Source: Rhodospirillaceae bacterium
GTDB taxonomy: Bacteria; Pseudomonadota; Alphaproteobacteria; Rhodospirillales; Casp-alpha2
Reading direction: 5' to 3'
Length of the DNA: 64,000 nt
NCBI GenBank assembly: GCA_018665815.1
Contig: JABJBP010000007.1
Span: 857-64,856, forward strand
Within the stretch, counting starts at the first letter, position 1, and each line of letters opens with the position of its first letter. The notes below the pieces were generated by a model, which worked only from the letters and a program-made list of their open reading frames with translations, made no database searches and was not told the DNA's origin. The translations under genes and the position numbers were made by a program. This document shows, one piece after another, positions 7,589 through 61,889 of the stretch.

Positions 7589-7603
7589 GTCCGGACCTAG
7601 CGC

Positions 7604-21958: not shown

Positions 21959-21972
21959 TGATCATGTCTCCC

Positions 21973-22848: not shown

Positions 22849-22860
22849 GTCGTGTTCTCC

Positions 22861-27501: not shown

Positions 27502-27507
27502 GGCCGC

Positions 27508-27729
27508 TTACTCATCATCTTGTTGAAAGTTCATCCGGCGCTGCTGTTCATCCAAGGCCAGAACCAGCAAGGCGAGGCGCGCCATATCCATATTCGACCA
27601 ACCTGCCGTCACCGTACCGTCTTTCCACAACACCGAAACGGCAACCGAATCGATATCATCTAAGTTCTCCAACCCGCTTTGAAAAATCTCAGCGGGGGTG
27701 GTGCCGTGTAGACTTGTGACCGTTCCCAT
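27508..27729 (-). CDS. Small acidic protein of unknown function (73 aa)
   Basis: ATG 27729 is preceded by GGAGGA. Wedged between the DUF3604-like and AcnX genes with gaps of 22 nt upstream and 6 nt downstream. Sequence is MGTVTSLHGTTPAEIFQSGLENLDDIDSVAVSVLWKDGTVTAGWSNMDMARLALLVLALDEQQRRMNFQQDDE. Confidence 0.5.
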   Translation of the reverse strand: MGTVTSLHGTTPAEIFQSGLENLDDIDSVAVSVLWKDGTVTAGWSNMDMARLALLVLALDEQQRRMNFQQDDE

Positions 27730-27751
27730 GGGGTGTTCCTCCGGGCGTTCC

Positions 27752-29995
27752 TCAGCGGAAAATGTATATGGGGCTCGACCAGATAAAGTGGCCGTCCTCC
27801 TGGGTAATACGGACATAAAGCGCGTTATCGCGATCACCGGCCAATTTCATTCGGCGTTCCAGCGTCAGCGCGCGGTGCGGGTTCTCATCGGGCAGGCGGA
27901 AAATCCGGATGCGCCGATCGATACCGCCGTTGGCAAAAATCATTTCATCGTAACCGATGTCCTTGATGGCGATTTCTTCTTTGATCAAATCCGTGTCGAT
28001 CTTCAAGGTTCCGGCGTCCGCGCCACCCAACCAGGCATCGAACCCACCGAACCCACCGGTCGTTAATGCCGCCCAATCGAGGCGGTTGTCACCGGTCTGC
28101 TCGAAGCGTTTGTCGATGTTGTAACGGTTGATCGGATCAAGGCGCTCAAAACTGTTGCCATCCAATTCCGCCGAGCCGTCCCAGACCGTCTCGCGGCCCC
28201 GGCCCCGATATTCCGATCCTTCCCAGAGCACCCGAATGCGCCGGCCGAGATCCGCCTCGGCGTAGGGCCGGAAAATTTCCTCAGTCTCCAAACCGTTGCG
28301 GATGTCGATGCGCTCGATGGGTGCGGAGGCATGGATATCGATCTTGAAGGTGACCTCGTCGTCGCCAGATTTCAGGATGTCCCCCATCATCGCCTCGTCG
28401 GCCATCTTGGAGGTGGCGTCACCCAGGTTCGGATCATCGGAAAACAGTTCCGCCGGATTGTCGAAGACGGCACGGGTGTCCAAAACGACGCGGTTGCCGG
28501 TGGTGCCGTAATGATGGCGTTTTTTAAGCGCCTCCATAATCCCGGCGCGGGTGAATTCAGGCGACAAGTTGCAGGTCAGGCCGCCGTAGGCGCCAAACTT
28601 GGTCGAGCCCGGATGAGACGCGCCGGGACGCCCCTTGTGGCCGTCGGAATTTGAGACGATGCCGACTCGGTAGCCCTGCTCGAAAGCATCGGTGATCAGC
28701 CATTCAAATGTTCCCCAGGCTGAGTGCACCTCAACGGCGCGCTCCAATCGGTCATCGTGGGCGATCTTGATATCGGCGTACCGCCCGCCGATATGCGCAA
28801 ACACCGTGCAATCCTCACCTTTCAAATCTTCGAACAGGTCGGCGGCGCAATTGGAATCGGTATCCACGTCCGACAAATCATCAACCAGCGCATGCGAGGA
28901 CCTGTGAATTTGGCGGCCTTCGTTCATGTGCAACACGTTGCGGTCACCGCCGAGCCCGGTATTGCCCGACCATTCCCAACCGGGGAAGACGATAAATTCA
29001 TCGTCCTTGGTGAACTCAGCGGAAAGCTCGTTGAGGTGCTCCCAAAATGCCGTGGTGATTTGGAAGTCATTGCCCTGATGAACACAAACATCAAGGAAGG
29101 CTTTGTCGCGGGCAAAATTATAGAAATCCCGCGCCGAGTTTGTGCCGATGGTTTCTTCCGACTGGCCGTGCAGATCACCCCAATAGGGCAGCAAATCGGC
29201 CTCTGCTGTCACCCGCATGGGATTCGATGTGCATACCGAATTGCCGTCGGCATCAACCAAATTAATGGTCAGATCACCCGGCGCACCGACGCTCAATCCA
29301 TCGACTATGGCTGAGAATTCACCGGAACGGAACGACACGGTATCGGGCAGGCCGTCGACGGGCGCGGACGCTTTCAAAACAAACGTGCTGTCGCATTGAT
29401 TGGACGGATTTCCCCAACGGTCTTCACCCTTTAGGCGCAATTTGAATTTCTGCCCGACGCGCTGCTGGGTCGGCATGATGGCTTTGTAATTCGCCGGCGG
29501 GCCGGGAATGATTGAAATGATCGGCTGTTCGGGCAGTTCCACGTAATTATACGTCGCGATGGCATCAACCAGCACCCGGAACTCGAAAGTGTCTTCGCAA
29601 AAGGTCTGGATGCGGATGCCCGGCGAGCCTTCACGGCGATCACCAAAACGAATGATGATTTGGTCATCGACCCTGAGAAAACCCCGCACGACCTTGATAT
29701 AAAGCGTTTTATCCCAGGGCCTGATATTTCGCTTCATGTCATATTCGATGTGCAAGATGGCACCGTTCGACGCTTCCACCGTCGTGTAGTTTGGCGCTTT
29801 CGGGTCGGTAAACTGCGGCCGACCCATATCCGAAGCGAACCGGTGCACCAGCTTGATCGACCCAGTATCGTCGATGCCGAAATAGCCGGCCGTATAAGTC
29901 ACGGTAAATTCCTGATAAGACCCGGCCTCAAAAGCGCCGGTGGGTGAGACCGTGGCGTGACCCATTTTTTCCGGCAGATATGTTGAATGCGGCAT
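27752..29995 (-). CDS. DUF3604-like (PHP-type metal-dependent hydrolase-like) protein, 747 aa
   Basis: The central YWGDLHGQSEE...VHQGNDFQ...GWEWSGNTGLGGDRNV...SNSDGHKGRPG pattern resembles the DUF3604/PHP metal-site layout as I remember it. GGAGAG RBS precedes the start. No closer assignment is possible by eye. Confidence 0.5.
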   Translation of the reverse strand: MPHSTYLPEKMGHATVSPTGAFEAGSYQEFTVTYTAGYFGIDDTGSIKLVHRFASDMGRPQFTDPKAPNYTTVEASNGAILHIEYDMKRNIRPWDKTLYIKVVRGFLRVDDQIIIRFGDRREGSPGIRIQTFCEDTFEFRVLVDAIATYNYVELPEQPIISIIPGPPANYKAIMPTQQRVGQKFKLRLKGEDRWGNPSNQCDSTFVLKASAPVDGLPDTVSFRSGEFSAIVDGLSVGAPGDLTINLVDADGNSVCTSNPMRVTAEADLLPYWGDLHGQSEETIGTNSARDFYNFARDKAFLDVCVHQGNDFQITTAFWEHLNELSAEFTKDDEFIVFPGWEWSGNTGLGGDRNVLHMNEGRQIHRSSHALVDDLSDVDTDSNCAADLFEDLKGEDCTVFAHIGGRYADIKIAHDDRLERAVEVHSAWGTFEWLITDAFEQGYRVGIVSNSDGHKGRPGASHPGSTKFGAYGGLTCNLSPEFTRAGIMEALKKRHHYGTTGNRVVLDTRAVFDNPAELFSDDPNLGDATSKMADEAMMGDILKSGDDEVTFKIDIHASAPIERIDIRNGLETEEIFRPYAEADLGRRIRVLWEGSEYRGRGRETVWDGSAELDGNSFERLDPINRYNIDKRFEQTGDNRLDWAALTTGGFGGFDAWLGGADAGTLKIDTDLIKEEIAIKDIGYDEMIFANGGIDRRIRIFRLPDENPHRALTLERRMKLAGDRDNALYVRITQEDGHFIWSSPIYIFR

Positions 29996-30010
29996 CGTGC
30001 TCTCCGTTCG

Positions 30011-30781
30011 TCAGGGCTTTTGCGGTAGCAGTTCAAGCCGCCGCGTGTCAGGGGGGATATAGACCACTTGATAGCTCAGTGGCGCGTCGCGAAAGCCGTA
30101 GCCTTGGATATGCAGGACGAGGCCGTTGGCCCCGATATCCAAACCCAGCATCCGTGCGATGTCATCAGGAAGTGCCTCTGCACCGACCTGTTCAACTATG
30201 CGCAATGTCGGCGCGTCGAAGCGCTGCCTGAGCAATGCGCGAATATTCATATTGTCGAGAGCGGCCGGCGGCTCGGACGCCAATTCGCTGAACCGCTGGC
30301 CGGTCAGGAACATCCGCGCCACGGCCTTGAACTCATGGTTCACATCGACATCGCGATCGATGCGAAGATGATTAGCCTCATGGCCCAAAAAATCCGTCCA
30401 TGCGCCACCCGTCGCGACTTCGGCTACCTTGGTCACCCGCGTAAACACCGGTAGGACGGTTTGCCCGTCATCGCCCAGAAAACGAAAATGCCACAGATCA
30501 TGCAGTTGGGACGGCGCGTCGGCAACGAAGGTCCCGCTGCCGTGTCGGCGGACAACGGCGCCACGATCGGCCAGATGCGAGAGCGCTTTTTGTACGGTAC
30601 CCAGACTGAACGGTAGGATCTGCGCCATCTCGGATTCGCCCGGCAATCGGTCGCCCGGCTTCAATTCACCCGTCTCAATGGCCTGCATGATGCCGTCCGA
30701 CAGCAACTGGTACTTCGGTGCGCGCACGCCCGTCGGGCGCCGCCCGTCGCTCAGCGTATTTGCCAGTCTGGCTAGTTCCAA
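30011..30781 (-). CDS. GntR-family regulator, HutC/UTRA type (paralog of 10143-10928); first gene of the long minus-strand operon
   Basis: HTH reads KYQLLSDGIMQAIETGELKPGDRLPGESEMAQILPFSLGTVQKALSHLADRGAV. TTG 30781 is preceded by GGGAGG-caata and gives 256 aa, matching the paralog. The track ORF extends to ATG 30880. Confidence 0.8.
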   Translation of the reverse strand: MELARLANTLSDGRRPTGVRAPKYQLLSDGIMQAIETGELKPGDRLPGESEMAQILPFSLGTVQKALSHLADRGAVVRRHGSGTFVADAPSQLHDLWHFRFLGDDGQTVLPVFTRVTKVAEVATGGAWTDFLGHEANHLRIDRDVDVNHEFKAVARMFLTGQRFSELASEPPAALDNMNIRALLRQRFDAPTLRIVEQVGAEALPDDIARMLGLDIGANGLVLHIQGYGFRDAPLSYQVVYIPPDTRRLELLPQKP

Positions 30782-30824
30782 TATTGCCTCCCGTCGCCGG
30801 TGTTCCACCGGATTCTTAAAAGAA

Positions 30825-30840
30825 CTATATAGCTCTATAG
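30825..30840. promoter_or_regulatory. CTATATAG-CTCTATAG tandem (first unit a perfect palindrome); candidate GntR operator in the divergent spacer
   Basis: Read directly. Related AACTATAT / ATATATAG elements occur at 10066-10073 and 10100-10107, upstream of the paralogous GntR. Confidence 0.3.
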
Positions 30841-30969
30841 ATTTTGGATCAAGGAACCAAATTTTCGCACCGTGGAACATCCGAGACGCCTGGTTTGCCG
30901 AGACCCGTCAGGAATGCTTCAATCTGGCGGCGATTTGGGGATCGATATTTTCAAGGGAGAGACCCGGCC

Positions 30970-32493
30970 ATGGGCATCACAGGCAGACCACAGTTCGAAA
31001 AACCACCATTGTTGGAGACCCGGCCGCCGCGTTGCCCGCCCTACTTCGATGTGACCAGCGTCGATCAGCTGTTGCCCTATTTGGAATTGGTTGCGCAGCG
31101 TCCTTACAACCAAGGCCTCCATGCCGCCTGGGACCTGCAGCCCGGTGAGCGGGTATTGCTCCGGGTCGACAATTGGCACGACGAATTGGTCGTCGAGGCA
31201 TGCAAAAAAATTCTCGAAAAATATGGCTGCAAGTATGAAATCAAGCACGCTGATCGCGGCCCCATTCCACAATGGGTCGGCGCCGACGAAGTCGACTATT
31301 ACTTGTACCGGACCAAGGAATTGGCCGAATGGATGGACACGTGGGGGGAACTCGCGAAAAGCGGTCAGTACGATAAAATTCTCTGGGGTTACGGCGGCCC
31401 GATCTTAGTTGACGACGATGTGAAAATTCAACGCATGCCCTTCATCACGCCTGAAATCCTGGCGTCCCCGGCGCATGCCATGCCTTATGAATTGCTGGAA
31501 GCCATCGACCAATGGACCTGGAATCGGGTGCGGTCGGCCAAGCGGGTGCGGATCACCGACCCGGAAGGCACGGATATCGAGTTTACCAACCACGCTGAAT
31601 ATTATGATGCGAAACGCGAGAACTATAATTGGGATTTGATCACCAAAACCTGGACCGATAACCCGCATTTCGCCAAGACCTACCTGCCTGGTCATGTCAC
31701 CGGTCGACCGTGGATTTTCCTGCCCGGCAAGGAAGACGGCAACGGCGTTATCGCCGGCACCACCAACCACATCGCGCCCGTCGACTGGACGCAATTGAAA
31801 ATCGAAAACTCGAAGATTACGGAAATCAACGAAGGCGGCGAGTTCGGCGATAAACTGCGCGCCCTGATGGCGGAATGCGCCGACATCCAGTATCCGGGCA
31901 TGCCGTCACCCGGCATCATGCACTGGTGGGAAGCTTCCATCGGCACCAATCCGCACATTCACCGGCCCAGAAAGGATTTCCCCTCAGGCCTGGTCAATTG
32001 CCTGTACGAGCGCGTGCGCTCGGGCGTCATCCATATTGGTTTCGGGACGATCATTTCGTCCATGGACGAGCGCCGTGCGGCGCGCGAAGGGCTAAAGGTC
32101 GGCCATTGGCATCTGCATCTCTATTTCCCGACATATATGGCGGAACGCGAAGGCGACAATGAGCCGGTGATTGAAGACGGCCGGCTCTTGGCCCTGGATG
32201 ACCCGGAAATCCGCAAACTGGCGGCGAAACACGGCGATCCTGATTTGTGGCTTCAGGAAAGCTGGATTCCGGCCGTGCCCGGCATCAATGTTGCCGGCGA
32301 ATACTGGAAACACTATGCCAATGACCCGTTGAAATGGGTCAAAATGGAACTCGACATCTGCCGCAATTGGCATCACTTGTTCATGCCCATGGTCGGCGGT
32401 GACACGCGGTTCTGTCATGACCATGCGGACTTCTGGTTGGGGGATTGCTGTGGCCATCCGGGCCTGCATACGCCGGACGACTGCTGCGGGTAA
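30970..32493 (+). CDS. M29 (aminopeptidase T / NicX)-like fold protein with Cys/His-rich C-terminal tail, 507 aa
   Basis: ATG 30970 is preceded by GGGAGAG. VRITDPEGTDIEF and EASIGTNPHI resemble M29-family motifs. The C-terminus reads RFCHDHADFWLGDCCGHPGLHTPDDCCG. Confidence 0.5.
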   Translation: MGITGRPQFEKPPLLETRPPRCPPYFDVTSVDQLLPYLELVAQRPYNQGLHAAWDLQPGERVLLRVDNWHDELVVEACKKILEKYGCKYEIKHADRGPIPQWVGADEVDYYLYRTKELAEWMDTWGELAKSGQYDKILWGYGGPILVDDDVKIQRMPFITPEILASPAHAMPYELLEAIDQWTWNRVRSAKRVRITDPEGTDIEFTNHAEYYDAKRENYNWDLITKTWTDNPHFAKTYLPGHVTGRPWIFLPGKEDGNGVIAGTTNHIAPVDWTQLKIENSKITEINEGGEFGDKLRALMAECADIQYPGMPSPGIMHWWEASIGTNPHIHRPRKDFPSGLVNCLYERVRSGVIHIGFGTIISSMDERRAAREGLKVGHWHLHLYFPTYMAEREGDNEPVIEDGRLLALDDPEIRKLAAKHGDPDLWLQESWIPAVPGINVAGEYWKHYANDPLKWVKMELDICRNWHHLFMPMVGGDTRFCHDHADFWLGDCCGHPGLHTPDDCCG

Positions 32494-33245
32494 CGTTCGG
32501 CTACAGCTTTGAAGTTCTCACAGCCGTCAGCATTGGCGTTGGCCTCGGCGGCTTTTCCAAAGGCGTCACGGGGATCGGTCTGCCAATAATTGCTATCGCC
32601 GTTATGATCCATTTCGTGGACCCACAAACCGCGTTCGTCACCATGGTTATCCCAAATTTGGTCACCAATATTTGGCAGTCCGCCACGTCTCATAACTGGA
32701 AAGAACCGTTCCTGAGGTTTTGGCCGATGATCGTGTGTTTCGTCATCAGTTTATTTATTGGTGCGGTGTTACTTGTCACGCTGGATGGCAGCACGCTCCT
32801 GACTATTTTGGGTGTATTTATGGCGGCATTCGCGGCAATGAACTTGATAAAACCCCGCGAACATCCCCTCTCGCCAACCGTCGAACGGTGGACTGGCCCC
32901 GTAGCTGGGACAGTGGGCGGACTCCTTGGCGGGCTGACCGCCATCTGGGGACCACCAATGCTGATGTTGTTTGTATTGTTGAAGTTGGACAAAGAGACAT
33001 GGATTCAGACAGTCGGCTTGATTTGGTTCATCGGATCCGTCCCGCTGGCTCTCGCATACTGGCACAATGGTTTATTGAACGCGCAAACTGCGCCGCTCTC
33101 GGCCTTTGCATGTATTGCAGGGATGATCGGCATTTGGCTCGGCGAGGTAATCCGGAGCAAGATTAATCAGGAAACCTTCCGCAAGCTCTTGTTGGTTTCG
33201 TTATTGCTCATCGGCCTAAATTTGGTTCGAGGGGCATTGTTTTAG
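32445..33245 (+). CDS. TauE/SafE (TSUP) family anion permease, copy 2
   Basis: Polytopic with the GVGLGGFSKGVTGIGLP and GTVGGLLGGLT family-type Gly motifs. The start is uncertain: TTG 32445 is the first in-frame candidate and overlaps the upstream gene by 49 nt. Confidence 0.7.
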   Translation: MLWPSGPAYAGRLLRVTFGYSFEVLTAVSIGVGLGGFSKGVTGIGLPIIAIAVMIHFVDPQTAFVTMVIPNLVTNIWQSATSHNWKEPFLRFWPMIVCFVISLFIGAVLLVTLDGSTLLTILGVFMAAFAAMNLIKPREHPLSPTVERWTGPVAGTVGGLLGGLTAIWGPPMLMLFVLLKLDKETWIQTVGLIWFIGSVPLALAYWHNGLLNAQTAPLSAFACIAGMIGIWLGEVIRSKINQETFRKLLLVSLLLIGLNLVRGALF

Positions 33246-34497
33246 TTACCGCTACGTTGGCCAATGACGCGCGCAGCACAAGACAGATAGGCAAGATCAA
33301 CAACACCATCACCGGCACCACACTGAGCGCTGCGTGAAGCCCCCATTGATCACTGAGCAGGCCATAAGCAAAAGGCGCCGCGGCACTGGCACCGATGCCC
33401 AACGTATAGAACAGCCCGAATGCCCGAGCCTGACTGTCGGCCTCGACGAAATCTCCCATGGTGCCGTAAAGCACCGATGAGGTGCCGTTGAGGACGACAC
33501 CCAAGAACGGCAGCATGATCAACGTTGGCACCAACGGCGCAAAAATTACCGCGACGATCAGCACCACGGTGCCGACTTCAGTGGCGACAACGGTGCGCAT
33601 GATGCCGACCCGTTCGGCAATGAACCCGCAGACCAATTTACCCGCCGCGCCGCCCCCCAGAACCAAGGCCAGGGCAAACCCCACGGTTTCGGTCTCCACG
33701 CCCTTGCCGATCAACAGAAACGGCAGAAAGGTGAGGAAACCAGTGCGCGAGCTTGTATCAATCATCGAGATCACGGAAAGCGCCGTGAAGCCGGTCCGGT
33801 CACGGATTCCCCATCCCCGCTTGCCTAAAACTTTCTTTTCTCCGGCCTTCCCCCTGGCCTTCCCCTCGGCCTCCCCCTCCGCCTTGGCACTACAGGCCGA
33901 CCGGCGTCCACCGGCGCCGGCGCGGCGCAACACGAAATAAATCGCCAATGCGGCGAACATACCGACGATGCCATGAGCGATGGTACCGGTGCGCCAGCCA
34001 AAAGCACCGGCGACCGCGGCAACGCTGACAGGCGCCACGATCTTGCCCAAATCACCGCCGAAGTTATAGGTCCCGAGCGCGGCCCGGCGCGGCCCGCCTT
34101 CATAGGCCTTGGAAATCAGTGCGGATGCCAAGGGATGCTGGGCGCTGGCGCCGAAGCCGCTCAAGCACAGGCAGACGGCCAACATGATAAAGCCTTCAGC
34201 GAACCCCAATAGCACGAACCCCAACCCGACCAGCACCGTTCCCAACACTAGAATAGGTCGCTCGCCTACTTTTTCGGCGACGAAACCGGCTGGAATTTGG
34301 AAGGCCGACATGGCGAGGCTGATAAATGTCTTCAGCAACCCGACTTGCGCGTGGGACAGCCCAAACTCGGCGGCCCATAGCGGCAATAGGATATAGACCG
34401 TATCGGTAAACCCGTCGTTGATGAAGTGCGCGAAGCCGCCGGCGCTCAACACTTTGCGACGCTTCGACAGCTCAGACATTGGGGCAGCATCTGTCAT
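33208..34497 (-). CDS. MFS transporter
   Basis: 429 aa with 12-TM layout and a long central loop. Divergent from a LysR gene. Confidence 0.85.
   Translation of the reverse strand: MTDAAPMSELSKRRKVLSAGGFAHFINDGFTDTVYILLPLWAAEFGLSHAQVGLLKTFISLAMSAFQIPAGFVAEKVGERPILVLGTVLVGLGFVLLGFAEGFIMLAVCLCLSGFGASAQHPLASALISKAYEGGPRRAALGTYNFGGDLGKIVAPVSVAAVAGAFGWRTGTIAHGIVGMFAALAIYFVLRRAGAGGRRSACSAKAEGEAEGKARGKAGEKKVLGKRGWGIRDRTGFTALSVISMIDTSSRTGFLTFLPFLLIGKGVETETVGFALALVLGGGAAGKLVCGFIAERVGIMRTVVATEVGTVVLIVAVIFAPLVPTLIMLPFLGVVLNGTSSVLYGTMGDFVEADSQARAFGLFYTLGIGASAAAPFAYGLLSDQWGLHAALSVVPVMVLLILPICLVLRASLANVAVTKTMPLEPNLGR
33844..33891. repeat. Imperfect 12-nt tandem repeat (3-4 units) inside the MFS central loop
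   Basis: Units are ggccttccccct / ggccttcccctc / ggcctccccctc / cgccttggcact. On the minus strand they encode SAKA-EGEA-EGKA-RGKA. Confidence 0.6.
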
Positions 34498-34568: not shown

Positions 34569-35441
34569 ATGTATGAAACATGGCTCAGATCATTTCACGC
34601 AGTCGCCCGCCACGGCGGCTTTACCGCCGCCGCCGGCGCGCTCAACCTCTCGCAGCCGACAATAACTGAGCAGGTAAAGTCTCTAGAAGGAAAATTCGGC
34701 GTCGAGTTATTTCATCGGCGCGGACGTACGGTGCGCCTAAGCGGCCCCGGCGCTGCGCTCTATGAAATCACCCAGGGCGTTGCCGGCCATATGGAAGAGG
34801 CGCTCCGATTCCTTGAAGTTGCCGGCGAAACCCCGGCCGGCCGGTTCGCCATCGGCAGCGTAAACCCCTATTACATCATGGAACCGGTTAGAGCCTTCGG
34901 CGCGCAATATGGCAATGTCGATACAGTACTAAGTGTCGACCACCGCCGCGAGGTCATCCAAGGCCTGTTGGATTTCCGCCTCGACGTCGCATTGATCGGA
35001 CGACGCGACCCCGATCCGCGCATTACCAACACAATGCTGTGGCAAAAGCGTGTTCATATCCTTTTGCCTTTTGATCATCCTCTGGCGAAACGTAAATCGT
35101 TGAAAATGAGCGATCTGGACGGCCAACCCATGCTGCTGCGCGAAGAACGCTCGACGACCCGTTTGGCCTTCGAGAAAGCCGTGCGGCACGCTGGCATAAA
35201 AGTGCCGGCGGTCATGGAAATCGATAGCCGCGAGGCCATCCGCGAGGCGGTTGCGTTGGGCATCGGGTTCGGCCTGGCGACAGACGGCGAGGTTCTCCCC
35301 GAGACCCGTCTGTGTAGCCGCCCGGTCAGCGACGCTGAGATGCAGGTCGTTTTTCATGCCGCATGTTTGAAAAACCGAGCCAAGCGACCGCTGATTGACG
35401 CCTTTATCAAGATCGCCAAAAACCATACAGATGCAGCTTAA
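34569..35441 (+). CDS. LysR-family transcriptional regulator
   Basis: HTH reads FHAVARHGGFTAAAGALNLSQPTITEQVKSLE; 290 aa. Confidence 0.9.
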   Translation: MYETWLRSFHAVARHGGFTAAAGALNLSQPTITEQVKSLEGKFGVELFHRRGRTVRLSGPGAALYEITQGVAGHMEEALRFLEVAGETPAGRFAIGSVNPYYIMEPVRAFGAQYGNVDTVLSVDHRREVIQGLLDFRLDVALIGRRDPDPRITNTMLWQKRVHILLPFDHPLAKRKSLKMSDLDGQPMLLREERSTTRLAFEKAVRHAGIKVPAVMEIDSREAIREAVALGIGFGLATDGEVLPETRLCSRPVSDAEMQVVFHAACLKNRAKRPLIDAFIKIAKNHTDAA

Positions 35442-36424
35442 ATTTCCAACAACACCTTGCCCTTGGTGAGCCGCGCTTCGATCATTTCATGGGCGGCGCG
35501 CGCCTCGGCCAGAGGAAATGTCCGATCGATGTTAATCGACAATTCTCCATCCAGATACAAAGCGAATAAGTCATCCGCACGGCCGCGCCGTTCGTCTTGG
35601 GTTGTCATATAATCAGCCAAGTGCGGACGGGTGAAAAAGATCGAGCCCGCTTCGGCCAAATCCAGTGGATCCAACTGCCCGATGGGACCCGACGCATTGC
35701 CGTTGTTGGACACCACGCCCCGGCGCTTGGCGCATTTCATGCTGCCTTGGATGGTGTCTTTGCCAACCGAGTCATAGACCACATCGACGCCCTCACCACC
35801 CGTCAATTCAAGAACGACCTCGGCGAAATCGACATCGCGGTAAAGAATGGTTTCATCAGCGCCCCGCGCTCTAGCAATCTCTGCTTTCTCGGGGTTGCCG
35901 ACCGTCGTGTAAACCACGGCACCCTGCGCTTTCGCCAGCTGGATTAGGACCTGACCAAGCCCACCGGCACCAGCGTGGATGAGGCACGTGTCACCGGATG
36001 CCAAGGGAAACAACGAGTGCGACAAATAGTGCGCCGTGCAGCCCTGTAATTGCAGTGCCGTTGCGATATCCATCGGCACGCCGTCGGGCACCGGCACCAA
36101 TTTCCAGGCCGGCACCACGGCATATTCGGCGTAACTGCCAAGATCGATGCAATAGGCGACCGTTTCGCCAAGTGCCAGATCATCGACACCATCTCCCAAC
36201 GCCTCAACGTAACCGGCGCCCTCCATGCCGATGACCATGGGTGGCTTTTGCGCATAGGTATCTGAGCGTTTGAAGATACCGCCGCGCATATAGACATCGA
36301 TGAAGTTGATCCCGGCAAAGATTTGGCGCACCAAGGCCTCACCGGGCCCAGGTTCGGGCACCGCGATGTCGTCCAGTTGCAACTGGTCAGCGCCGCCGTA
36401 TTCCTGAACCCGTATGGCCTTCAT
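35438..36424 (-). CDS. Zn-independent MDR-family NAD(P)H:quinone oxidoreductase-like
   Basis: 328 aa with MKAIRVQEYGGADQLQL... and AGAGGLGQVLIQLAK. Last gene of the IclR-headed operon, with a 4-nt overlap. Confidence 0.8.
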   Translation of the reverse strand: MKAIRVQEYGGADQLQLDDIAVPEPGPGEALVRQIFAGINFIDVYMRGGIFKRSDTYAQKPPMVIGMEGAGYVEALGDGVDDLALGETVAYCIDLGSYAEYAVVPAWKLVPVPDGVPMDIATALQLQGCTAHYLSHSLFPLASGDTCLIHAGAGGLGQVLIQLAKAQGAVVYTTVGNPEKAEIARARGADETILYRDVDFAEVVLELTGGEGVDVVYDSVGKDTIQGSMKCAKRRGVVSNNGNASGPIGQLDPLDLAEAGSIFFTRPHLADYMTTQDERRGRADDLFALYLDGELSINIDRTFPLAEARAAHEMIEARLTKGKVLLEI

Positions 36425-37323
36425 GGTACGCCTCGGCTCGCCTGCTTGATCGCGCCGAAGGCTTCCTTCAGCGCATCACCAACATGCGACGGTGTCGCCA
36501 AGACGTTGACACCAGCGGCCTCAAGCGCCTTTTTCTTCGACGCATAGGTGCCCTTGTCGCCCATGACGATGGCGCCGGCATGCCCCATTTTCTTGCCCGG
36601 TGGTGCGGCGCCGCCAGCGATGAAGGCGACGACGGGCTTGTCCATGGTGGCGACATATTCGGCGGCATCTTCTTCCATGGAGCCGCCGATTTCACCAACC
36701 ATGACGATGACTTCCGTGCCTTCGAAGCTGTCCAGGGCCTCAATGGCGTCGCGGGTCGTCGTACCCAACACCGGATCACCACCGATGCCTAAGAAAGCCG
36801 TCTGGCCATAACCGGCGGAGACGATGTTTTGGCACATCAAGGTCGCCAGGCTTCCTGAACGCGACATCACGCCGACATTTCCTTTCTTGAAGATGCGATC
36901 ATTAAACACCGGCATGAAGCCTAAGAAGCACTCGTCAATCGTCGCCGAACCCGCTGTATTCGGTCCGATGACAGTGGTGCCGTGTTCCTTGGCGGCGGCC
37001 ATGAAATACATGACGTCCTGGACCGGAATGTGTTCGGTCAGACACACGACCGTCTTGGCCCCGGCCTCAATAGCGTCCATGGCCGCGGCCTTGACGCCTA
37101 AGGCCGGAATGAACATGACCGTGGCATCAAAACCACCGCCTTCCATGGCATCCTTGGCAGAGCCATAAACAGGCACGCCACAATGTTCCGTGCCAGCCTT
37201 TTTCGGGTTCACACCACCAACAATTTTGGTGCCGTAGGCCTGCATGTGCTCCGTCCAGAACGTGCCTTGCTTGCCGGTGATGCCCTGGACCAGGACGCGG
37301 TGTTCTCTTCTGACAATCTTCAT
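36421..37323 (-). CDS. ADP-forming acyl-CoA ligase alpha subunit (SucD-like)
   Basis: Reads VLVQGITGKQGTFWTEHMQAYGTKIVGGVNPKK, with phospho-His loop KKMGHAGAIV. ATG 37323 overlaps the beta-subunit stop (ATGA). Confidence 0.85.
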   Translation of the reverse strand: MKIVRREHRVLVQGITGKQGTFWTEHMQAYGTKIVGGVNPKKAGTEHCGVPVYGSAKDAMEGGGFDATVMFIPALGVKAAAMDAIEAGAKTVVCLTEHIPVQDVMYFMAAAKEHGTTVIGPNTAGSATIDECFLGFMPVFNDRIFKKGNVGVMSRSGSLATLMCQNIVSAGYGQTAFLGIGGDPVLGTTTRDAIEALDSFEGTEVIVMVGEIGGSMEEDAAEYVATMDKPVVAFIAGGAAPPGKKMGHAGAIVMGDKGTYASKKKALEAAGVNVLATPSHVGDALKEAFGAIKQASRGVP

Positions 37324-38456
37324 GACGCGCCCCCTTTCGCGGCATCGACGGCGGCTTTGCATGCGGCATCCATATCCGGCAATGGGTCAACGCCCATGCG
37401 GTCCTTCAGCATTTTGATCGCGACCAGGTCGCCGGTGCCGGCGATGGAGAAGAACACCGGAATTTCGGGCTTTAGTTCTTCCCAAGCCGTCAGAAAGCCC
37501 TCCATCATCACATCGCAGCGCGCAAACGCGCCGCAAAAATTGACGACCAGACTTTTCACGCCGGGCTTATCTAACACCATCTTCACGCCGTCGGTGGCCT
37601 TGGTGTAGGCCTCGCCGCCGATCTCGCAGAAGTTCGCGGGGTTTCCACCGTGATGGCGGACCACGTCCATGGTCGTCATGGTCAATCCGGCGCCGTTGGC
37701 CAGCACAGCCACGTCGCCTTCAAGCTCAATATACTTGATACCAAGATCCTCTCCGCGCGTCTCCAGTTCCGTCAGCTTGTCCGGCGTGCCATTCGGCGCA
37801 ATTTCCTGCTGGCGCTTGATACCCGAATCGTCGAGCGAAAACTTGCAGTCCAAAGCAATCACGCCGCCTGCGCCAGTTAGCACCAGCGGGTTGATTTCCA
37901 ACAGTTCCGCGTCGTTCGCCCGGTAGGCTTCATAGAGCTTTACCAAGGTCTCGGCGATGGCCTCATTGGCACCGTCTAGCGCCTCGCCATCGACCAACGC
38001 GCGCGCTGCGGCGATATCGAACCCTTTGCGGATGTCGACCGGGGCCTTGCGCAGTTTTTCCGGTGTGTCGACGGCGATTTCCTCGATGTCCATGCCGCCT
38101 TCCGTGGAAAACATGACGACAGGGCTCTTGGTCGTCGGATCGTTCAACACGGCGGCGTAAAATTCACGCGCGATGTCGGACAATTCCTCAACCCAGACCT
38201 TTTCCACGACATGCGTGGCGATGGTCATGCCCAGGATATTGGCCGCATGGGTTCTGGCTTCATCGGCTGTTTGCGCCAGTTGAATGCCACCGGCTTTACC
38301 GCGCTTACCTGTCGGCACTTGCGCTTTAACGACGACGGGGCCCAAGGTGGCGACGGCATCAGCCGCCGCGTCCGGGTCGTGGGCCAAGATACCTTTTGGC
38401 ACGTTGATCCCGGCGGCCGCCAAAATCGGCTTGGCCGCGTACTCTTCAAAGTTCAT
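37320..38456 (-). CDS. ADP-forming acyl-CoA ligase beta subunit (SucC-like, ATP-grasp)
   Basis: 378 aa with MNFEEYAAKPILAAAGINVPKG...VVVKAQVPTGKRGKAGGI. Confidence 0.85.
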   Translation of the reverse strand: MNFEEYAAKPILAAAGINVPKGILAHDPDAAADAVATLGPVVVKAQVPTGKRGKAGGIQLAQTADEARTHAANILGMTIATHVVEKVWVEELSDIAREFYAAVLNDPTTKSPVVMFSTEGGMDIEEIAVDTPEKLRKAPVDIRKGFDIAAARALVDGEALDGANEAIAETLVKLYEAYRANDAELLEINPLVLTGAGGVIALDCKFSLDDSGIKRQQEIAPNGTPDKLTELETRGEDLGIKYIELEGDVAVLANGAGLTMTTMDVVRHHGGNPANFCEIGGEAYTKATDGVKMVLDKPGVKSLVVNFCGAFARCDVMMEGFLTAWEELKPEIPVFFSIAGTGDLVAIKMLKDRMGVDPLPDMDAACKAAVDAAKGGAS

Positions 38457-38459
38457 GAC

Positions 38460-39896
38460 TTACTTCCCGTGCTTACCCCAATAGGCACCAAACAAGGCAT
38501 CCTCGGACGGTTTGTCTTCGGGAATGGTTGTTACCAGATGAGTGATGTTGAGGAAATTCTTGTAGTTCAGATTCTCAGTTATTGAGTTTCCGGCCCAGGT
38601 GCCGCAGCCCATGGACAAGGTAAACGACAGTCCATTATCGAAGCTGCCGCCATTGCCAAACGTGTGCGCCTGATTGACCAGCACACGGACGACCCGCAAC
38701 TCTTCGGCCAGTTCCCGGGCGTGGTCGGTGTCCTTGGTATGAATACCGACCGAATGCCCCATGCCGACGAAATCCAGCACGTTCTGGACATGCGCCTTGG
38801 CGGCGGCAAAATCAGTTGCCCGATAAACGGTCAGCGCCAGAGAAAGTTTTTCATCCGAGAACGGGTGATCCTTTCCGGCGGCGTTCTCGTCTTCAACCAT
38901 GAAGAACTTGGCCGACTTGGCTTCTTCGGGCAGACCACAGGTCTCGGCGAACACGTCCGGGTCTTTGGCAATGACGTGCCGGTTCAAATGTCCATCGACC
39001 CAAAGAGTCTCTTCGATCTTCTTCTTGTCTTCCGGCGTGCACAAATACCCGCCGGCGTCCTTCAATGCCTGAATGGCATCGTCGTAGACGGCATCCAAAA
39101 TGGTGATCGAATTTTCCGACGAACACGACGTCGAATTATCGAAGCACTTCGACATCATGATCTTGTTGGCCGCATCGGCCAGATCAGCAGTTGTATCGAT
39201 AATCACCGGCACATTGCCGGCGCCGACGCCGATGGCCGGCGTGCCCGACGAATAAGCGCGTTTGACGTTGTTCTGCGATCCGGTCACGACCACCAGATCG
39301 GCCTGGTTCATCAACTCCTGGGTTAGCGCCTTGTTGACCGGGGACGGCAGAACCTGAACTAGGTCTTCCGGCGCACCGACCTTTTTCAATTCCGCGCGCA
39401 TGTAATTGACGGTTTTGGTGGTGGTGCTGAGGCCGGCCGGGCTGGGCGCCACGATCACCGCGTTGCGGCCTTTCACGGCCATCATCGCCTTATTGACCGG
39501 CGTCGCGGCGGGGTTGGTGCTTGGGGCCACGGCAGCGACCACGCCGACCGGCTTGGCGTATTTGACCAACCCTTTTTCCGGCAGTTCTTCAATGATGCCG
39601 ACCGATTTCACCCGCATCAGATCACGCAGGCAACCAAACGTCTTGCGTGTGTTCTTGGTGATTTTGCTTTCGACATTGCCCAGGCCCGTATCAGCGACCG
39701 CGACCTCGGCCAATTCCTTGGCGCGGGCAGGCTCGTAAATGGCCCAGGCCAGCGCCGTCACGGCTTCGTCGGCGGCCGCCTGATCGGCAGCCTCAAAGAT
39801 ATCCATAGCGGTGCGCGCATTGGCTATCAGGGAATTTATGATCGCCTCGGCGCCGTCTTCTTGGGCGGGGGCGGGGGCAACTGCTGTTTGGGTCAC
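38460..39896 (-). CDS. CoA-acylating aldehyde dehydrogenase (EutE/PduP/SucD(Ck)/SauS-like)
   Basis: 478 aa. Catalytic-Cys motif FDNSTSCSSENS is present. There is no ELGG-type motif of hydrolytic ALDHs. Sits directly upstream of the CoA ligase genes. Confidence 0.75.
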   Translation of the reverse strand: MTQTAVAPAPAQEDGAEAIINSLIANARTAMDIFEAADQAAADEAVTALAWAIYEPARAKELAEVAVADTGLGNVESKITKNTRKTFGCLRDLMRVKSVGIIEELPEKGLVKYAKPVGVVAAVAPSTNPAATPVNKAMMAVKGRNAVIVAPSPAGLSTTTKTVNYMRAELKKVGAPEDLVQVLPSPVNKALTQELMNQADLVVVTGSQNNVKRAYSSGTPAIGVGAGNVPVIIDTTADLADAANKIMMSKCFDNSTSCSSENSITILDAVYDDAIQALKDAGGYLCTPEDKKKIEETLWVDGHLNRHVIAKDPDVFAETCGLPEEAKSAKFFMVEDENAAGKDHPFSDEKLSLALTVYRATDFAAAKAHVQNVLDFVGMGHSVGIHTKDTDHARELAEELRVVRVLVNQAHTFGNGGSFDNGLSFTLSMGCGTWAGNSITENLNYKNFLNITHLVTTIPEDKPSEDALFGAYWGKHGK

Positions 39897-39986
39897 GATC
39901 TGCTCCTATGTTCTTTGCGTGTACTTATATTGAATCTTCTAAAATGTGGAATGGCCAAGAGCGGTCAGGGCACATCTTTATCGCCG

Positions 39987-40883
39987 TCATTCGGCGGATA
40001 TCGACCCGTCTTCCGCCCGATCAAATTCGGTATTTCCATCACCGTCTTGAAGCTCGGTAATATGTTTTTGCAATGCCGCCGCCACGGCCCGCATGGTCGG
40101 CAGATGTCCTTCCGCCTGCTTCACCGTCATCCGCGCATCGGGCGCATGAACCGCCAAGCCGGCGACAACCCGGCCGCCGCCGTCATAGACGGGCACGGCC
40201 AAGGCGATCAGGCCGGCAACGTGTTCCGAAGAATTCGTCGCACAGCCATTGCGCCGAATGCCCTTCAGTTCGGCCTCCAGTTCATCTGGATTTGTAATCG
40301 TGTGCTCGGTCAGGCTCGGCAAGGGTGCTGCATGGATCAAACGCTGGCGGGTCCGGCTTGGCAGATGGGCCAACAAGAGCTTACCGATGGCCGTGGCGTG
40401 GACGGGCACCCGGCTGCCGGCGCTCAATTGCAGGCGTAGCGGCCAGTCACACTCGACCCGGTCGATGTAGACCACTTCGTCGCGATCCAATATGCCGATA
40501 TTGCAGGTCTCACCGATTTGGCCGACCAAGTCCTTCAGCACGGTGCGCATGGGCGCCAACCGCCAGGCGACGGCGATGGCGTTGAGACTGAGGTTAACCA
40601 TCCTGGACCCGACGGAGAAATGATCACGGGCGAAATCGCGGCGAATCAAATCCAGGTCTTCCAGCTGACGGACGATGCGGTGTACGGTTTGGCGCGGCAA
40701 GTCGAGTTTCGCCGAAACCTCTGCGAGACCAAGGGCATGTTCCGATTCGAACAGTGCGTCGAGCACGAGCACCGCTTTTTGGAGGGCTGAGCCACTTTCC
40801 TTCTGGCTTTCCGGCATCGATGTTTTCCGTACCTGTGAGAACCGTGCTAAATATTCAATCGTCGATTCCACCATAGTCTGCAA
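39987..40883 (-). CDS. IclR-family transcriptional regulator
   Basis: Reads SALQKAVLVLDALFESEHALGLAEVSAKLDLPRQTVHRIVRQL, plus an IclR effector domain. ATG 40817 is a plausible alternative start. Confidence 0.85.
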   Translation of the reverse strand: MQTMVESTIEYLARFSQVRKTSMPESQKESGSALQKAVLVLDALFESEHALGLAEVSAKLDLPRQTVHRIVRQLEDLDLIRRDFARDHFSVGSRMVNLSLNAIAVAWRLAPMRTVLKDLVGQIGETCNIGILDRDEVVYIDRVECDWPLRLQLSAGSRVPVHATAIGKLLLAHLPSRTRQRLIHAAPLPSLTEHTITNPDELEAELKGIRRNGCATNSSEHVAGLIALAVPVYDGGGRVVAGLAVHAPDARMTVKQAEGHLPTMRAVAAALQKHITELQDGDGNTEFDRAEDGSISAE

Positions 40884-46215: not shown

Positions 46216-47097
46216 CTAGCTTTGTATGCCAAGCACTGGTTCCGTCTCGCCAATCTGCGTGCGACGCATATGCCGCCGCGCCTTGGGATCAAACGCGTCA
46301 CGGCGATGCAATAAGAATCGATTGTCCCAAAGAATGAGATCGCCGACCTGCCATTGTTGATGCCAATTAAATTCAGGCTTGGTGATATGCGCCCACAATT
46401 CATCGAGCAGCGCTTCACTTTCTTCGACGGCTAATCCCATCACGTAAGCGTTGCGCCGGCGCCCCAAATACAGGGCTTTCCCACCGGTTTCCGGGTGTAC
46501 ACGAACCAACGGATGGACGGCGCCCGGCACTTCCGAGACGTCTTTATAATTTTCTTCGAAACCTTTGCGTAGTTGACCGACACTGTTGCGGCTGGCGTCG
46601 TGTTTGCACGATAACGTAGCAATTCGTTCGCGGGTGGCCGCCGGCAGCGCCTCATAAGCGGCGAACATGTTATCAAACCCCGTATCACCACCGCTTAGCG
46701 GCACTTCCAACGCATAAAGCATGCAGCCTTTCGGTGGCGCATCCGTGTAGGTCATATCGGCGTGCCACTCGGCCTCGCCGTCGCCCAAACCGCCGGTCCG
46801 TTGCCCCTCCGGCGTGGTGATGTTTGAGATCACATTGATTTCGGGGTTTTCCGGCACCCAAGTAGTCCCGTAGGGATTGATCGGCGCCTTATCCAAAGGG
46901 CCGAACCGTCGGCTGAAGGCGAGGAGATTTTCGTCGCTCAATTGTTGGCCGCGAAATCTCAGCACCAAATGATCCCGCCACGCGCCGGCGATGATTGCGA
47001 ATGCGTCATCGCTCACCGGCACGGATAAATCGACGCCGTGGACATCGGCACCCAGCGCCGCCCCGATCGGTTCAATCCTAATTGTGGTGGCGTTCAA
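46216..47097 (-). CDS. TauD/TfdA-family Fe(II)/2-oxoglutarate dioxygenase
   Basis: 293 aa. Opens IRIEPIGAALGADVHGVDL. His-x-Asp facial-triad region is EWHADMTY. The C-terminal segment reads WDNRFLLHRR. Confidence 0.85.
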   Translation of the reverse strand: MNATTIRIEPIGAALGADVHGVDLSVPVSDDAFAIIAGAWRDHLVLRFRGQQLSDENLLAFSRRFGPLDKAPINPYGTTWVPENPEINVISNITTPEGQRTGGLGDGEAEWHADMTYTDAPPKGCMLYALEVPLSGGDTGFDNMFAAYEALPAATRERIATLSCKHDASRNSVGQLRKGFEENYKDVSEVPGAVHPLVRVHPETGGKALYLGRRRNAYVMGLAVEESEALLDELWAHITKPEFNWHQQWQVGDLILWDNRFLLHRRDAFDPKARRHMRRTQIGETEPVLGIQS

Positions 47098-47885
47098 AAT
47101 ATCAGCCCTCTCAACGCTTTGTACATTTCGTTCGGGCGTTCAATCATCATCATATGGCCGCATCGATCCAGGATATTGACGTTCGCGCCCTCAATGGCAT
47201 CGGCCAGCGCGATGCCACTTTTCACCGGCGTCATTTTATCGTCGCGGCCCAACACGAAATCGGTCGGGCAGGTAATCTTTAATGCCGCAGCGGGGGCGTC
47301 GGTATAGGCATTACAGGCGGCCAGGTCATTTGAAAGGACGCCGGCTTTCGCATTTTTCAACAACACCTCGCTGGCGCCGTGAACCCAAAGCCCGGGCAGC
47401 GGATGGCCGCCGGTCTGAGCTTTCTCGCCAAGCCCCCAGAAAACGATCAATTCCGGTCCCAGCGGCTCATTGGCGGCGGCGGCAGCAAGAAGGTCGGGAT
47501 GCACCGGCATGCCTTCGGCGACACCGGTCAAGATCAAGCGCTCGGCGCGTTCCGGATAACGCGACACCGCATCCAACGTGATCAGTGACCCCATGGAATG
47601 GCCCATAAAAGTCGCAGTATCGATCTCCGCCGCATCCATGAAACGAACCAGCCAATCGGCAATGTCGGCAATGGATGCGAGCGCCGGGCCATCGGATCGC
47701 CCATGACCGGGCAAATCGACAGCGAACACGCGCCGCTCCTGAAAGGCGATATTGCGGGTCTGCATCTGCCAGATGGTGCGGTCCATGCCGGCGCCGTGAA
47801 CCAAAATCACGGCGGGATCGTCCGGGTTATTGGCCCGTCCGCCGGTGGCCGCATGGGCGGTTTTGCCATCAACGATAATATCCAT
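47094..47885 (-). CDS. Alpha/beta hydrolase
   Basis: 263 aa with VILVHGAGMD and the nucleophile elbow GHSMGS. Shows a 4-nt overlap with the TauD-like gene. Confidence 0.8.
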   Translation of the reverse strand: MDIIVDGKTAHAATGGRANNPDDPAVILVHGAGMDRTIWQMQTRNIAFQERRVFAVDLPGHGRSDGPALASIADIADWLVRFMDAAEIDTATFMGHSMGSLITLDAVSRYPERAERLILTGVAEGMPVHPDLLAAAAANEPLGPELIVFWGLGEKAQTGGHPLPGLWVHGASEVLLKNAKAGVLSNDLAACNAYTDAPAAALKITCPTDFVLGRDDKMTPVKSGIALADAIEGANVNILDRCGHMMMIERPNEMYKALRGLIF

Positions 47886-47894
47886 GTCCCGACC

Positions 47895-49190
47895 TCACCC
47901 TTTTTGCGAAGCGCGAAGCGCCTGCTTCAAATCGGCGGTGATATCATCGACATCCTCAATGCCGACGCTGAGCCGCACCATCCCTTCCCCGATGCCGGCG
48001 GCCTCCAGGGCTTCACCGGACATTTGCTGGTGGGTCGTGCTGGCTGGGTGAATAACCAAAGTTTTGGCATCACCAACGTTGGCCAAATGCGAAGCCAACC
48101 GCACGCTCTCAATGAACTTCCGTCCCGCCGCACGACCACCTTTCAACCCGAAGCTCAACATCGCACCCGGCCCCTTCGGGATCAGGCGCTTCGCCAATTC
48201 GTGGTCGGGATGCGAGGCAAGCCCCGGATAGTTCACCCACCCGACCTCATTAACGCCTTCGAGGAACTCGGCGACCGTTTGCGCGTTGGCGATGTGCTTT
48301 TCCATGCGGAGCGGCAGCGTCTCGATCCCTTGCAGAATATAGAACGCGTTGGCCGGACTCATGCAGGCGCCAAAATCCTTCATCCCTTCGGCGCGGGCCC
48401 GCATGACCAAGGCTTGCGTGCCGAACTCTTCGGCGAAGTCGAGCCCGTGATAGCCGTCGTAGGGTTCGGTCAGAGTTGGAAATTTCCCTGATGCCTCCCA
48501 ATCAAAGCGCCCCGAATCAATAAATACGCCGCCGATGGCGACCCCGTGCCCACCCATGTACTTGGTCAGCGAATGCATGACGATATCCGCGCCATGATCG
48601 AAGGGATTCATCAGATAAGGCGTGGTGAACGTGCTGTCGATCATCAACGGCAAGCCCGCATCGTGCGCAACATCGGCGATTACTGGCAGGTCCATGACCT
48701 CAATCCCCGGGTTACCCAAGGTCTCGCCAAAGACTAGGCGGGTGTCATCGGTGATTGCGTCTTTGAAGGCCTGAGGATCGCGCGGGTTGACGAAGGTCGT
48801 GTTGATCCCGAAGCGCGGCATGGTGTAGCTGAATAGATTGTGCGTACCGCCGTAAAGCGAGCCCGATGAGACGATATGTCCGCCTTTGTCCATCAACGTT
48901 GCAATGGCCAGGAAAATCGCCGCCATGCCGCTGGCAGTCGCCACCGCGCCGACACCGCCTTCCAGCGCAGCGGCGCGTTCTTCCAACACCGCAACAGTCG
49001 GATTGGAGAGCCGCGTATAGATATGGCCGGGGCGTTCCAGGTTATAGAGCGACGCCGCGTGATCGGTATCTTCGAAGACATACGACGTGGTTTGATAGAT
49101 CGGCACGGCCCGGGCACCGGTCGTGGGGTCAGGCTGTTGGCCGGCGTGCAGGCTAAGGGTATCAAAATTCAAAAACTTCGGCGTCACCAT
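47895..49190 (-). CDS. metY: O-acetylhomoserine sulfhydrylase (PLP, Cys/Met metabolism family)
   Basis: Reads [39 protein letters not shown]...[13 protein letters not shown] 49190 is preceded by GGAGG. The track ORF extension to 49514 is not protein-like. Confidence 0.9.
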
Positions 49191-49278
49191 GGCGGCCTCC
49201 GGGGTTCTGGCCCTCTTTACAAACACGTCCGTACTCTTTACGCAAGGCGCCATCGAACTGATGCCGGGAGACTGCAGA

Positions 49279-55050: not shown

Positions 55051-55152
55051 GACATCCTCCCGCGCCGATGTCCTCCCGGCGCCCGCCGCATCGTTCCATA
55101 GCGTCCGGCTGGCGACAAGGCTAACAACACTGACCGCCAATCCATCGCGTGA

Positions 55153-61237: not shown

Positions 61238-61270
61238 GGTCTGCTCCCTGGAAAATTGTTGATTCCGGTT

Positions 61271-61882: not shown

Positions 61883-61889
61883 GTCAGCC

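Follow-up and report, generated by a model that had tools for sequence, protein, structure and literature searches.

Sulfoacetate systems related to the locus

The metabolism of sulfoquinovose and taurine commonly ends in sulfoacetate, and, to our knowledge, the recycling of sulfoacetate in oxic seawater is poorly documented. The locus described here lies in a 64,000-nucleotide stretch of DNA (the window) from a Rhodospirillaceae bacterium (contig JABJBP010000007.1, positions 857 to 64,856), in which five consecutive minus-strand open reading frames (ORFs) at 35438–40883 encode an IclR regulator, an acylating aldehyde dehydrogenase (ALDH), a SucC-like protein, a SucD-like protein, and a Qor-like protein. 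This locus is likely to be a sulfoacetate-degradation module, with a candidate sauR followed by an operon of sauS, sucC-like, sucD-like, and qor-like genes, which feeds sulfoacetaldehyde acetyltransferase (Xsc) together with phosphate acetyltransferase (Pta).

The SauCD enzyme of Bilophila wadsworthia was characterized in 2023 as an ADP-forming SucCD-type sulfoacetate-CoA ligase (PMC10413351). Like the Bilophila SauS-SauCD system (SauS, E5Y8P9; SauCD, E5Y8P8/E5Y8P7), the window carries a two-subunit SucCD-type ligase next to a SauS-type ALDH, with the same proposed chemistry as far as sulfoacetaldehyde. Beyond this point the two diverge: Bilophila reduces sulfoacetaldehyde to isethionate for the oxygen-sensitive IseG, whereas in the window it would pass to Xsc and Pta. 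The window also differs in its host, which resembles an aerobic marine alphaproteobacterium, and in its extra Qor-like gene. A transporter of the Bilophila class (tripartite tricarboxylate transporter, TTT; SauXYZ-like) is present in Azospirillum and in a Magnetovibrio metagenome-assembled genome (MAG; our locus L090), whereas the window cluster has a major facilitator superfamily (MFS) gene instead. Bilophila SauS shares only 37% identity with the enzyme of Cupriavidus, whereas the SauS equivalog model accepts the window protein. On the sulfoacetate reading, the window operon adds another example of the route known from this gut anaerobe and is not novel in kind.

SauRSTU of Cupriavidus necator H16 represents the AMP-forming route (cited in PMC10413351), and the sulfoacetate clusters of alpha- and gammaproteobacteria have mostly been tied to SauT (PMC10413351). 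The window shares with Cupriavidus a SauS of the same family and downstream Xsc and Pta, and its IclR-type regulator is a candidate counterpart of SauR, but the AMP-forming SauT is replaced by the SucCD-type ligase, which would spend one ATP equivalent rather than two.

The idea that aerobes supply Xsc by a SauCD route has already been published on the basis of genome mining: a 2025 study noted sauSCD, along with xsc and pta, in the MAG of a marine Arenicellales sponge symbiont and in 3 of 99 bins from seawater (PMC12625764). These are also aerobic marine bacteria with the gene combination of the window, but they belong to other taxa and have TTT transporters, and the study contains no comparative or active-site analysis and does not mention a Qor-like gene (PMC12625764). 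HpfXYZ, which handles 3-sulfopropionate, and SqwD/SqwKL, which oxidize sulfoacetaldehyde, both of fermenting Firmicutes, also combine an acylating ALDH with a SucCD-type ligase for a short sulfonated acid, but they run oxidatively for ATP (PMC11489063).

The SauS dehydrogenase

The ALDH (38460–39896, minus strand; 478 amino acids, Aldedh domain, GTG start) was identified as the acylating sulfoacetaldehyde dehydrogenase SauS. Domain and family assignments were made with Pfam and NCBIfam models, with the equivalog cut-offs as thresholds, and the protein matched NCBIfam NF047625 (AcylSulfactDhSauS equivalog, EC 1.2.1.81) at 793.3 bits against a cut-off of 600 and over its full length (residues 16–478 on model positions 2–464 of 464). 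The next-best models, of the AdhE and EutE types, scored far under their own cut-offs, and the best solved structure, the acetylating succinate-semialdehyde dehydrogenase 8CEI, reached just 292 bits. The gene order given in the original prediction is present, as are both motifs that it quoted, GHAGAIV in the SucD-like protein and FDNSTSCSSENS in the ALDH. The latter starts at residue 252 and contains the catalytic Cys258, and its TSCSS core is common to all SauS relatives examined, whether linked to SucCD, SauT, or a CoA transferase.

The window SauS is ~50% identical to SauS proteins encoded next to the AMP-forming ligase. In our tree these SauT-linked proteins of Caballeronia, Sulfitobacter, and Ruegeria formed a group with 96% support nested among the SucCD-linked ones, indicating that SauS is one family combined with different activating enzymes. 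The clusters of Sulfitobacter and Ruegeria carry TTT transporters, and that on Caballeronia pNK83 is of the sauRSTU type. A plasmid of the haloarchaeon Haloterrigena sp. KLK7 (L096, 2889–8517) encodes TTT transporter genes followed by a SauS-family ALDH (55% identity) and a CoA transferase, which suggests a third, ATP-free way to sulfoacetyl-CoA.

The SucCD-type ligase

The β (ATP-grasp) subunit is encoded at 37320–38456 (minus strand; 378 amino acids, ATP-grasp_2 and Ligase_CoA domains) and the α (CoA-binding, phospho-His) subunit at 36421–37323 (minus strand; 300 amino acids, CoA_binding and Ligase_CoA domains). Both fell short of the equivalog models of the housekeeping enzyme, the SucC-like protein with 350.4 bits (cut-off 370) and the SucD-like protein with 331.6 bits (cut-off 336). 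The comparison set comprised 22 non-redundant relatives and, from many phyla, 66 housekeeping SucC and 62 housekeeping SucD proteins. The window subunits were 30–44% (SucC) and 34–51% (SucD) identical to the housekeeping enzymes, compared with 46–94% within the clade of SauS-linked ligases. The original prediction had asked how the ligase is placed against bona fide SucCD; for each subunit, the SauS-linked clade was monophyletic, apart from the housekeeping enzymes, in 50 of 50 neighbor-joining bootstraps.

The window ligase shares with the housekeeping SucCD (Escherichia coli 2SCU and pig 5CAE) the fold, the subunit architecture, the phospho-His loop (GHAGAIV at SucD residue 247, with His248), and the catalytic Glu, in GEIGG of the α subunit and EINPL of the β subunit. 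What differs is the succinate site. In 5CAE, an α-subunit Tyr and the backbone of the β-subunit G-I-V motif bind the distal carboxylate of succinate (PMC11489063). The Tyr is Thr161 in the window SucD-like protein, in a segment that reads S-G-S-L-A-T-L here, S-G-S-L-(A/G)-T-L in the clade, and, almost without exception, S-G-T-L-T-Y-E in housekeeping enzymes. Residues 307–312 of the β subunit read F-C-G-A-F-A in the window, as in its clade, against a nearly invariant I-F-G-G-I-M/V in the housekeeping set, so that A-F-A (310–312) occupies the G-I-V position. These ligands of the distal carboxylate are replaced in 87–100% of the 23 clade members and kept in the housekeeping enzymes (62–66), and it is therefore very unlikely that the ligase is a succinate ligase. 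The HpfYZ signature (α-subunit His for Tyr, β-subunit G-I-N) is likewise absent from the window, which has Thr and A-F-A. Judging from the separate clade, the scores below the equivalog cut-offs, the altered residues, and a context without genes of the tricarboxylic acid (TCA) cycle, we regard the ligase as a SucCD paralog and not as the housekeeping enzyme of that cycle. It is the only SucCD pair within the window.

SucCD-like pairs with altered substrate motifs also occur in other settings. One locus (L105, 661–6771), reached from a representative with an F-C-G-A-F-A-R motif, has an IclR–MFS–GlcG/HbpS-like–SucCD–SDR cluster with the C-G-A-F-A-R motif of the window and without SauS. In two Firmicutes loci (L103 and L104, 7752–12459), which are unrelated to sau, a SucCD-like pair with L-F-G-A-Y-A-R stands with an HMGL-like lyase and a symporter of the Na/sulfate family.

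Conserved gene neighborhood

The conserved gene neighborhood is the strongest evidence for the sulfoacetate reading. Our scan took one genome per species and was dominated by housekeeping sucC, and the 70–87% relatives were recovered by a separate search of encoding contigs. All 14 scan loci with a SucC of at least 48% identity have a SauS homolog (51–73%) directly upstream, in the order SauS-SucC-SucD, and none of the 66 housekeeping loci of the same scan (SucC at most 42% identity) has SauS upstream. With all sets pooled, SauS is immediately upstream in 22 of 22 non-redundant relatives of the ligase clade, which is distributed over Alphaproteobacteria and two actinobacterial loci. An xsc gene was found within the fetched flanks of half of the scan loci (7/14; L003, L004, L006, L007, L008, L011, and L013), several of which also have pta and an IclR gene, and in 9–10 related loci overall, including Azospirillum argentinense p3, an Indioceanicola plasmid, and Rhodococcus pDK2. 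Several of the xsc-bearing loci carry Pta, TTT uptake systems, SoeABC-like sulfite dehydrogenase genes, TauE, and PntAB.

The order on A. argentinense p3 is IclR, Pta, TctCBA, SauS, SucC, SucD, a gap due to the incomplete gene table in PLSDB, a 4Fe-4S protein, a DmsC-like anchor, and Xsc; the 4Fe-4S protein and the anchor correspond to a SoeABC-like sulfite dehydrogenase. The Indioceanicola plasmid has an Azospirillum-type core with the molybdopterin subunit annotated and with xsc upstream on the opposite strand. Inside both clusters, pta is directly upstream on the same strand and is of the same Pta type as in the window. Rhodococcus pDK2 has Xsc, PntAB, and MFS on one side and SauS-SucCD-IclR and TauE on the other. 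The closest named relative, the Magnetovibrio MAG (86–89% identity), reads IclR-TctCBA-SauS-SucC-SucD-Qor, and a 79% relative (L091) reads IclR-SauS-SucCD-DUF169-MFS. Three Thalassospiraceae-like genomes carry the SauS-SucCD trio, with SorAB-like sulfite oxidase genes nearby in two of them. TauE is found near the sau genes in L002, the Magnetovibrio MAG, and Rhodococcus pDK2. In the last of these (Rhodococcus sp. DK180, L095, 948–3986), PntAB lies between xsc and MFS/SauS-SucCD, with the same match in DK17 and DK176; such a transhydrogenase would fit an NADPH need of SauS.

SauS and a SucCD-type ligase thus form a recurrent gene module, which occurs in aerobes with Xsc; cultured carriers are found in Azospirillum (A. 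brasilense or A. argentinense), Xanthobacter (X. tagetidis), Ancylobacter (A. novellus), Acidiphilium, and Rhodococcus (Rhodococcus sp. DK17). The ligase genes are at present annotated as 'succinate--CoA ligase', 'acetate--CoA ligase family', or 'CoA-binding protein', and because of this mis-annotation surveys of genomes and metatranscriptomes are likely to underestimate sulfoacetate use. Given one biochemically confirmed member, the residues specific to the clade could become an annotation marker.

Gene layout and expression in seawater

The host of the window was detected in many marine metagenomes and the locus itself in many seawater and marine metagenomes, and the same gene calls were obtained on 6 independent metagenome contigs carrying the identical locus. 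The original prediction had described ATGA or 4-nt overlaps between the genes. The 4-nt ATGA overlaps are indeed found at sucC/sucD and at sucD/qor; sauS and sucC are separated by a 3-nt spacer, and iclR and sauS by a gap of ~90 nt, with an AGGAG ribosome-binding site before the GTG start of sauS. The iclR start is the ATG at 40817 according to the gene callers, position 40883 being the TTG start of the longest ORF. A promoter and terminator scan of the locus stayed at background level, and an alignment of the regions upstream of sauS in relatives, made for a conserved operator, was uninformative.

Assembled RNA contigs from four marine metatranscriptomes cover 35.2–40.9 kb, and these metatranscriptomes also show expression of xsc and pta. 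None of these contigs covers the flanks at 32–35 kb and 41.4–42 kb, which argues against DNA carry-over. The sauS/sucC junction is bridged by the contig 37746–38475 and two others, and sucC, sucD, and qor are bridged by a single contig, 36132–37434. Judging from these bridges, sauS-sucC-sucD-qor looks like one transcript. The operon had been thought to be headed by iclR, but the iclR/sauS gap is bridged by no RNA contig from the four metatranscriptomes; iclR is probably a separate transcription unit, which fits its variable position and orientation in relatives. In run X25, one RNA contig (depth 7) passes from 36646 straight to 37274, so that 627 nt of sucD are missing from it; as a single contig from a single run, it could be an assembly artefact or come from a deletion strain.

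Proposed route and alternative explanations

In the proposed route, sulfoacetate would be imported, perhaps via the neighboring MFS protein, as by the TTT transporter in the closest relative. ATP would phosphorylate His248 of the α subunit, the phosphoryl group would pass to the sulfoacetate carboxylate, and CoA would displace phosphate, giving sulfoacetyl-CoA, ADP, and phosphate. SauS, through Cys258 and with NAD(P)H, would then reduce sulfoacetyl-CoA to sulfoacetaldehyde, which Xsc, encoded elsewhere in the window, would convert to acetyl phosphate and sulfite. Pta would form acetyl-CoA from acetyl phosphate, and sulfite would leave through TauE-type exporters or be oxidized. The nucleotide and the cofactor named here, like the substrate of the ligase and the direction of flux, are what we infer from gene families and their context. 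The route from sulfoacetate to Xsc via a SucCD-type ligase, which the original prediction had put forward, is supported by the SauS model, the SauS-linked clade, the lost succinate residues, and transcription in marine samples.

Several points weigh against this assignment. The likeness to Bilophila is at the level of architecture and gene context, and from sequence and context the ligase of the alphaproteobacterial and actinobacterial clade is a candidate for sulfoacetate. The C-G-A-F-A-R motif is also carried by the SucCD-like pair without a SauS neighbor (L105), indicating that the motif marks a non-succinate subfamily and not sulfoacetate by itself. The window xsc lies ~30 kb from the sau operon. 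The window MFS shares only 25% identity with the transporter of the SauU type, and no RNA contig from the four metatranscriptomes covers its gene. The RNA contigs are Logan assembler output, unstranded and possibly containing DNA, and are to be read qualitatively. Finally, the reactions of both enzymes can run either way in vitro (PMC10413351, PMC11489063), so that the direction is deduced from the context.

This reversibility leaves room for the same enzymes to run oxidatively, SauS oxidizing sulfoacetaldehyde to sulfoacetyl-CoA and the ligase releasing sulfoacetate with formation of ATP, in the manner of SqwD/SqwKL of fermenters; sulfoacetate would then be excreted. The oxidative direction is physiological in the sulfo-TK variant, and the reactions are reversible (PMC11489063, PMC12890257); sources of sulfoacetaldehyde (from taurine, isethionate, or sulfopyruvate) are encoded in the window by Ald with a MocR-type regulator next to xsc and by a ComDE-like decarboxylase, and exporter-like TauE and MFS genes adjoin the operon. 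We nevertheless consider this direction improbable. The closest relative, Azospirillum, and Indioceanicola have the module behind a binding-protein-dependent TTT uptake system. TTT systems that depend on a substrate-binding protein are importers, and such importers, along with the xsc and pta genes inside or next to the clusters, argue for a flow that starts from external sulfoacetate and leads to Xsc, not for the opposite direction. In relatives, xsc, pta, and sulfite dehydrogenase genes are close to the module on the same strand (xsc on the opposite strand in Indioceanicola), and an operon that both makes and consumes sulfoacetaldehyde is sensible only with flow towards Xsc. For an aerobe, acetyl-CoA is worth more than one ATP, and the regulator shares 41% identity with the IclR protein of a degradative sauRSTU-type cluster.

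The ligase and the ALDH might instead convert a different short acid to its aldehyde, be it 3-sulfopropionate, malonate, or some further acid with a sulfonate or other substituent, with the Qor-like protein perhaps handling an unsaturated precursor. Bilophila SauCD shows 20% activity with 3-sulfopropanoate and 7% with malonate (PMC10413351), the C-G-A-F-A-R subfamily has members without a SauS neighbor, and the nearest solved relative of the Qor-like protein is the 2-haloacrylate (C=C) reductase. However, SauS scores far over its equivalog cut-off, the recurrent neighbor Xsc acts on a C2 aldehyde, the 3-sulfopropionate signature of HpfYZ is absent, and the Qor-like gene is missing from 21 of 22 related loci, which together make such a substrate quite improbable. 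We give hardly any credence to an ordinary route from succinate via succinyl-CoA to succinate semialdehyde, or to a spare succinyl-CoA synthetase. Succinyl-CoA synthetases are the best solved relatives of the ligase, and an acetylating succinate-semialdehyde dehydrogenase is that of the ALDH, and the SucC and SucD models were missed only narrowly, but the succinate-binding Tyr and G-I-V are replaced across the clade, which is separate from the 66 housekeeping enzymes; the neighbors in relatives are sulfonate genes, without TCA-cycle genes; and the SauS model scores 793 bits compared with 292 for the succinate-semialdehyde enzyme. The same data thus disfavor the succinate-semialdehyde route that had been named as the mundane alternative. 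As for the origin of the sulfoacetate module, we put forward only tentatively, as a rather unlikely reading, that the SauS-linked SucCD clade is a separate recruitment, independent of the Bilophila and Firmicutes SauCD/SqwKL and with its own A-F-A/Thr site, and that the Qor-like gene extends the operon; if this were true, the coupled 2-haloacrylate-reductase-like gene would add an undescribed substrate or step in the window lineage.

Regulator, MFS transporter, and Qor-like protein

The IclR-family regulator (39987–40817, minus strand; 276 amino acids, Pfam HTH_IclR and IclR_C) is a candidate SauR. The degradative cluster with the 41% identical IclR is the sauR-sauS-sauT-sauU-type cluster of Caballeronia pNK83. 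An IclR gene is present in ~13 of 22 related loci, in variable position and orientation. By this resemblance the protein is a candidate sulfoacetate-responsive regulator.

The MFS gene (33208–34497, minus strand; MFS_1) encodes a candidate sulfoacetate importer. Its orthologs (56–63% identity) are beside the sau genes in the Magnetovibrio MAG and directly downstream of them in L091, which hints weakly at a role in import.

The last gene (35438–36424, minus strand; 328 amino acids, ADH_N and ADH_zinc_N) encodes a Qor-like NADPH-dependent medium-chain reductase with an AGAGGLG nucleotide motif. The ATGA overlap couples it translationally to sucD. It had been called a quinone oxidoreductase; the Qor-like domains are there, but the protein scores below the QorA-type model NF008024 (248 bits, cut-off 348), and its best solved relative is the 2-haloacrylate reductase CAA43 (1WLY; 43% identity over 320 residues). 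Among the 22 relatives, the gene was found only in the nearest one, the Magnetovibrio MAG. On this distribution we take the Qor-like protein to be a lineage-specific accessory outside the conserved sau module.

Other sulfonate genes in the window

The context genes listed in the original prediction were xsc, pta, comDE, and TauE. Family models confirm Xsc (3939–5717, plus strand; TIGR03457, 946.8 bits, cut-off 676), Pta (5833–6756, plus strand; NF006045, 355.9 bits, cut-off 282), and a candidate TauE/SafE-family sulfite exporter (32445–33245, plus strand; PF01925, 117 bits; gene call of 250 amino acids), and a second TauE-family match is at 22861–23583. By contrast, the ComDE-like two-subunit thiamine pyrophosphate (TPP) decarboxylase (61271–62399) is weakly supported, with sub-threshold matches to the sulfopyruvate decarboxylase models (ComD, 101 against 148 bits; ComE, 110 against 222 bits). 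In a row on the minus strand at 59750–63977 are a TctA subunit, this two-subunit TPP decarboxylase, and a betaine-aldehyde-dehydrogenase-like ALDH, possibly forming a branch of the sulfopyruvate or phosphonopyruvate type. The TctA near the right end of the window is only ~35% identical to the sau-linked TctA and was not counted as a sau component.

The region 969–10005 contains a MocR-type regulator, alanine dehydrogenase, Xsc, and Pta, followed by a sulfolactaldehyde 3-reductase, which passes its equivalog model (365 against 348 bits), and an ALDH like succinate-semialdehyde dehydrogenase. These sulfonate genes suggest that the window is a hub for several routes converging on sulfoacetaldehyde. 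No AMP-binding gene is in the sau cluster, and the sole one in the window (53425–55140) is 28% identical to a SauT-type protein.

At 19614–25838 (minus strand) there are an SdhA/FrdA-like flavoprotein, α and β subunits like class-I fumarase/tartrate dehydratase, a TauE-family protein, an SdhB-like Fe-S protein, and a glyoxalase-like protein, and at 26251–32493 there are AcnX, a 747-residue weak DUF3604 protein, a GntR regulator, and a protein of ~507 residues without a family match, which adjoins the other TauE. The genes at 19614–32493 matched no known pathway; they look like a dehydratase/oxidoreductase pathway tied to sulfite export, the substrate of which is possibly another sulfonated dicarboxylate. 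At 46216–49514 (minus strand), a TauD-family dioxygenase, which scores below the taurine dioxygenase cut-off, is encoded with an α/β hydrolase and an O-acetylhomoserine sulfhydrylase, and this arrangement is conserved in L091.

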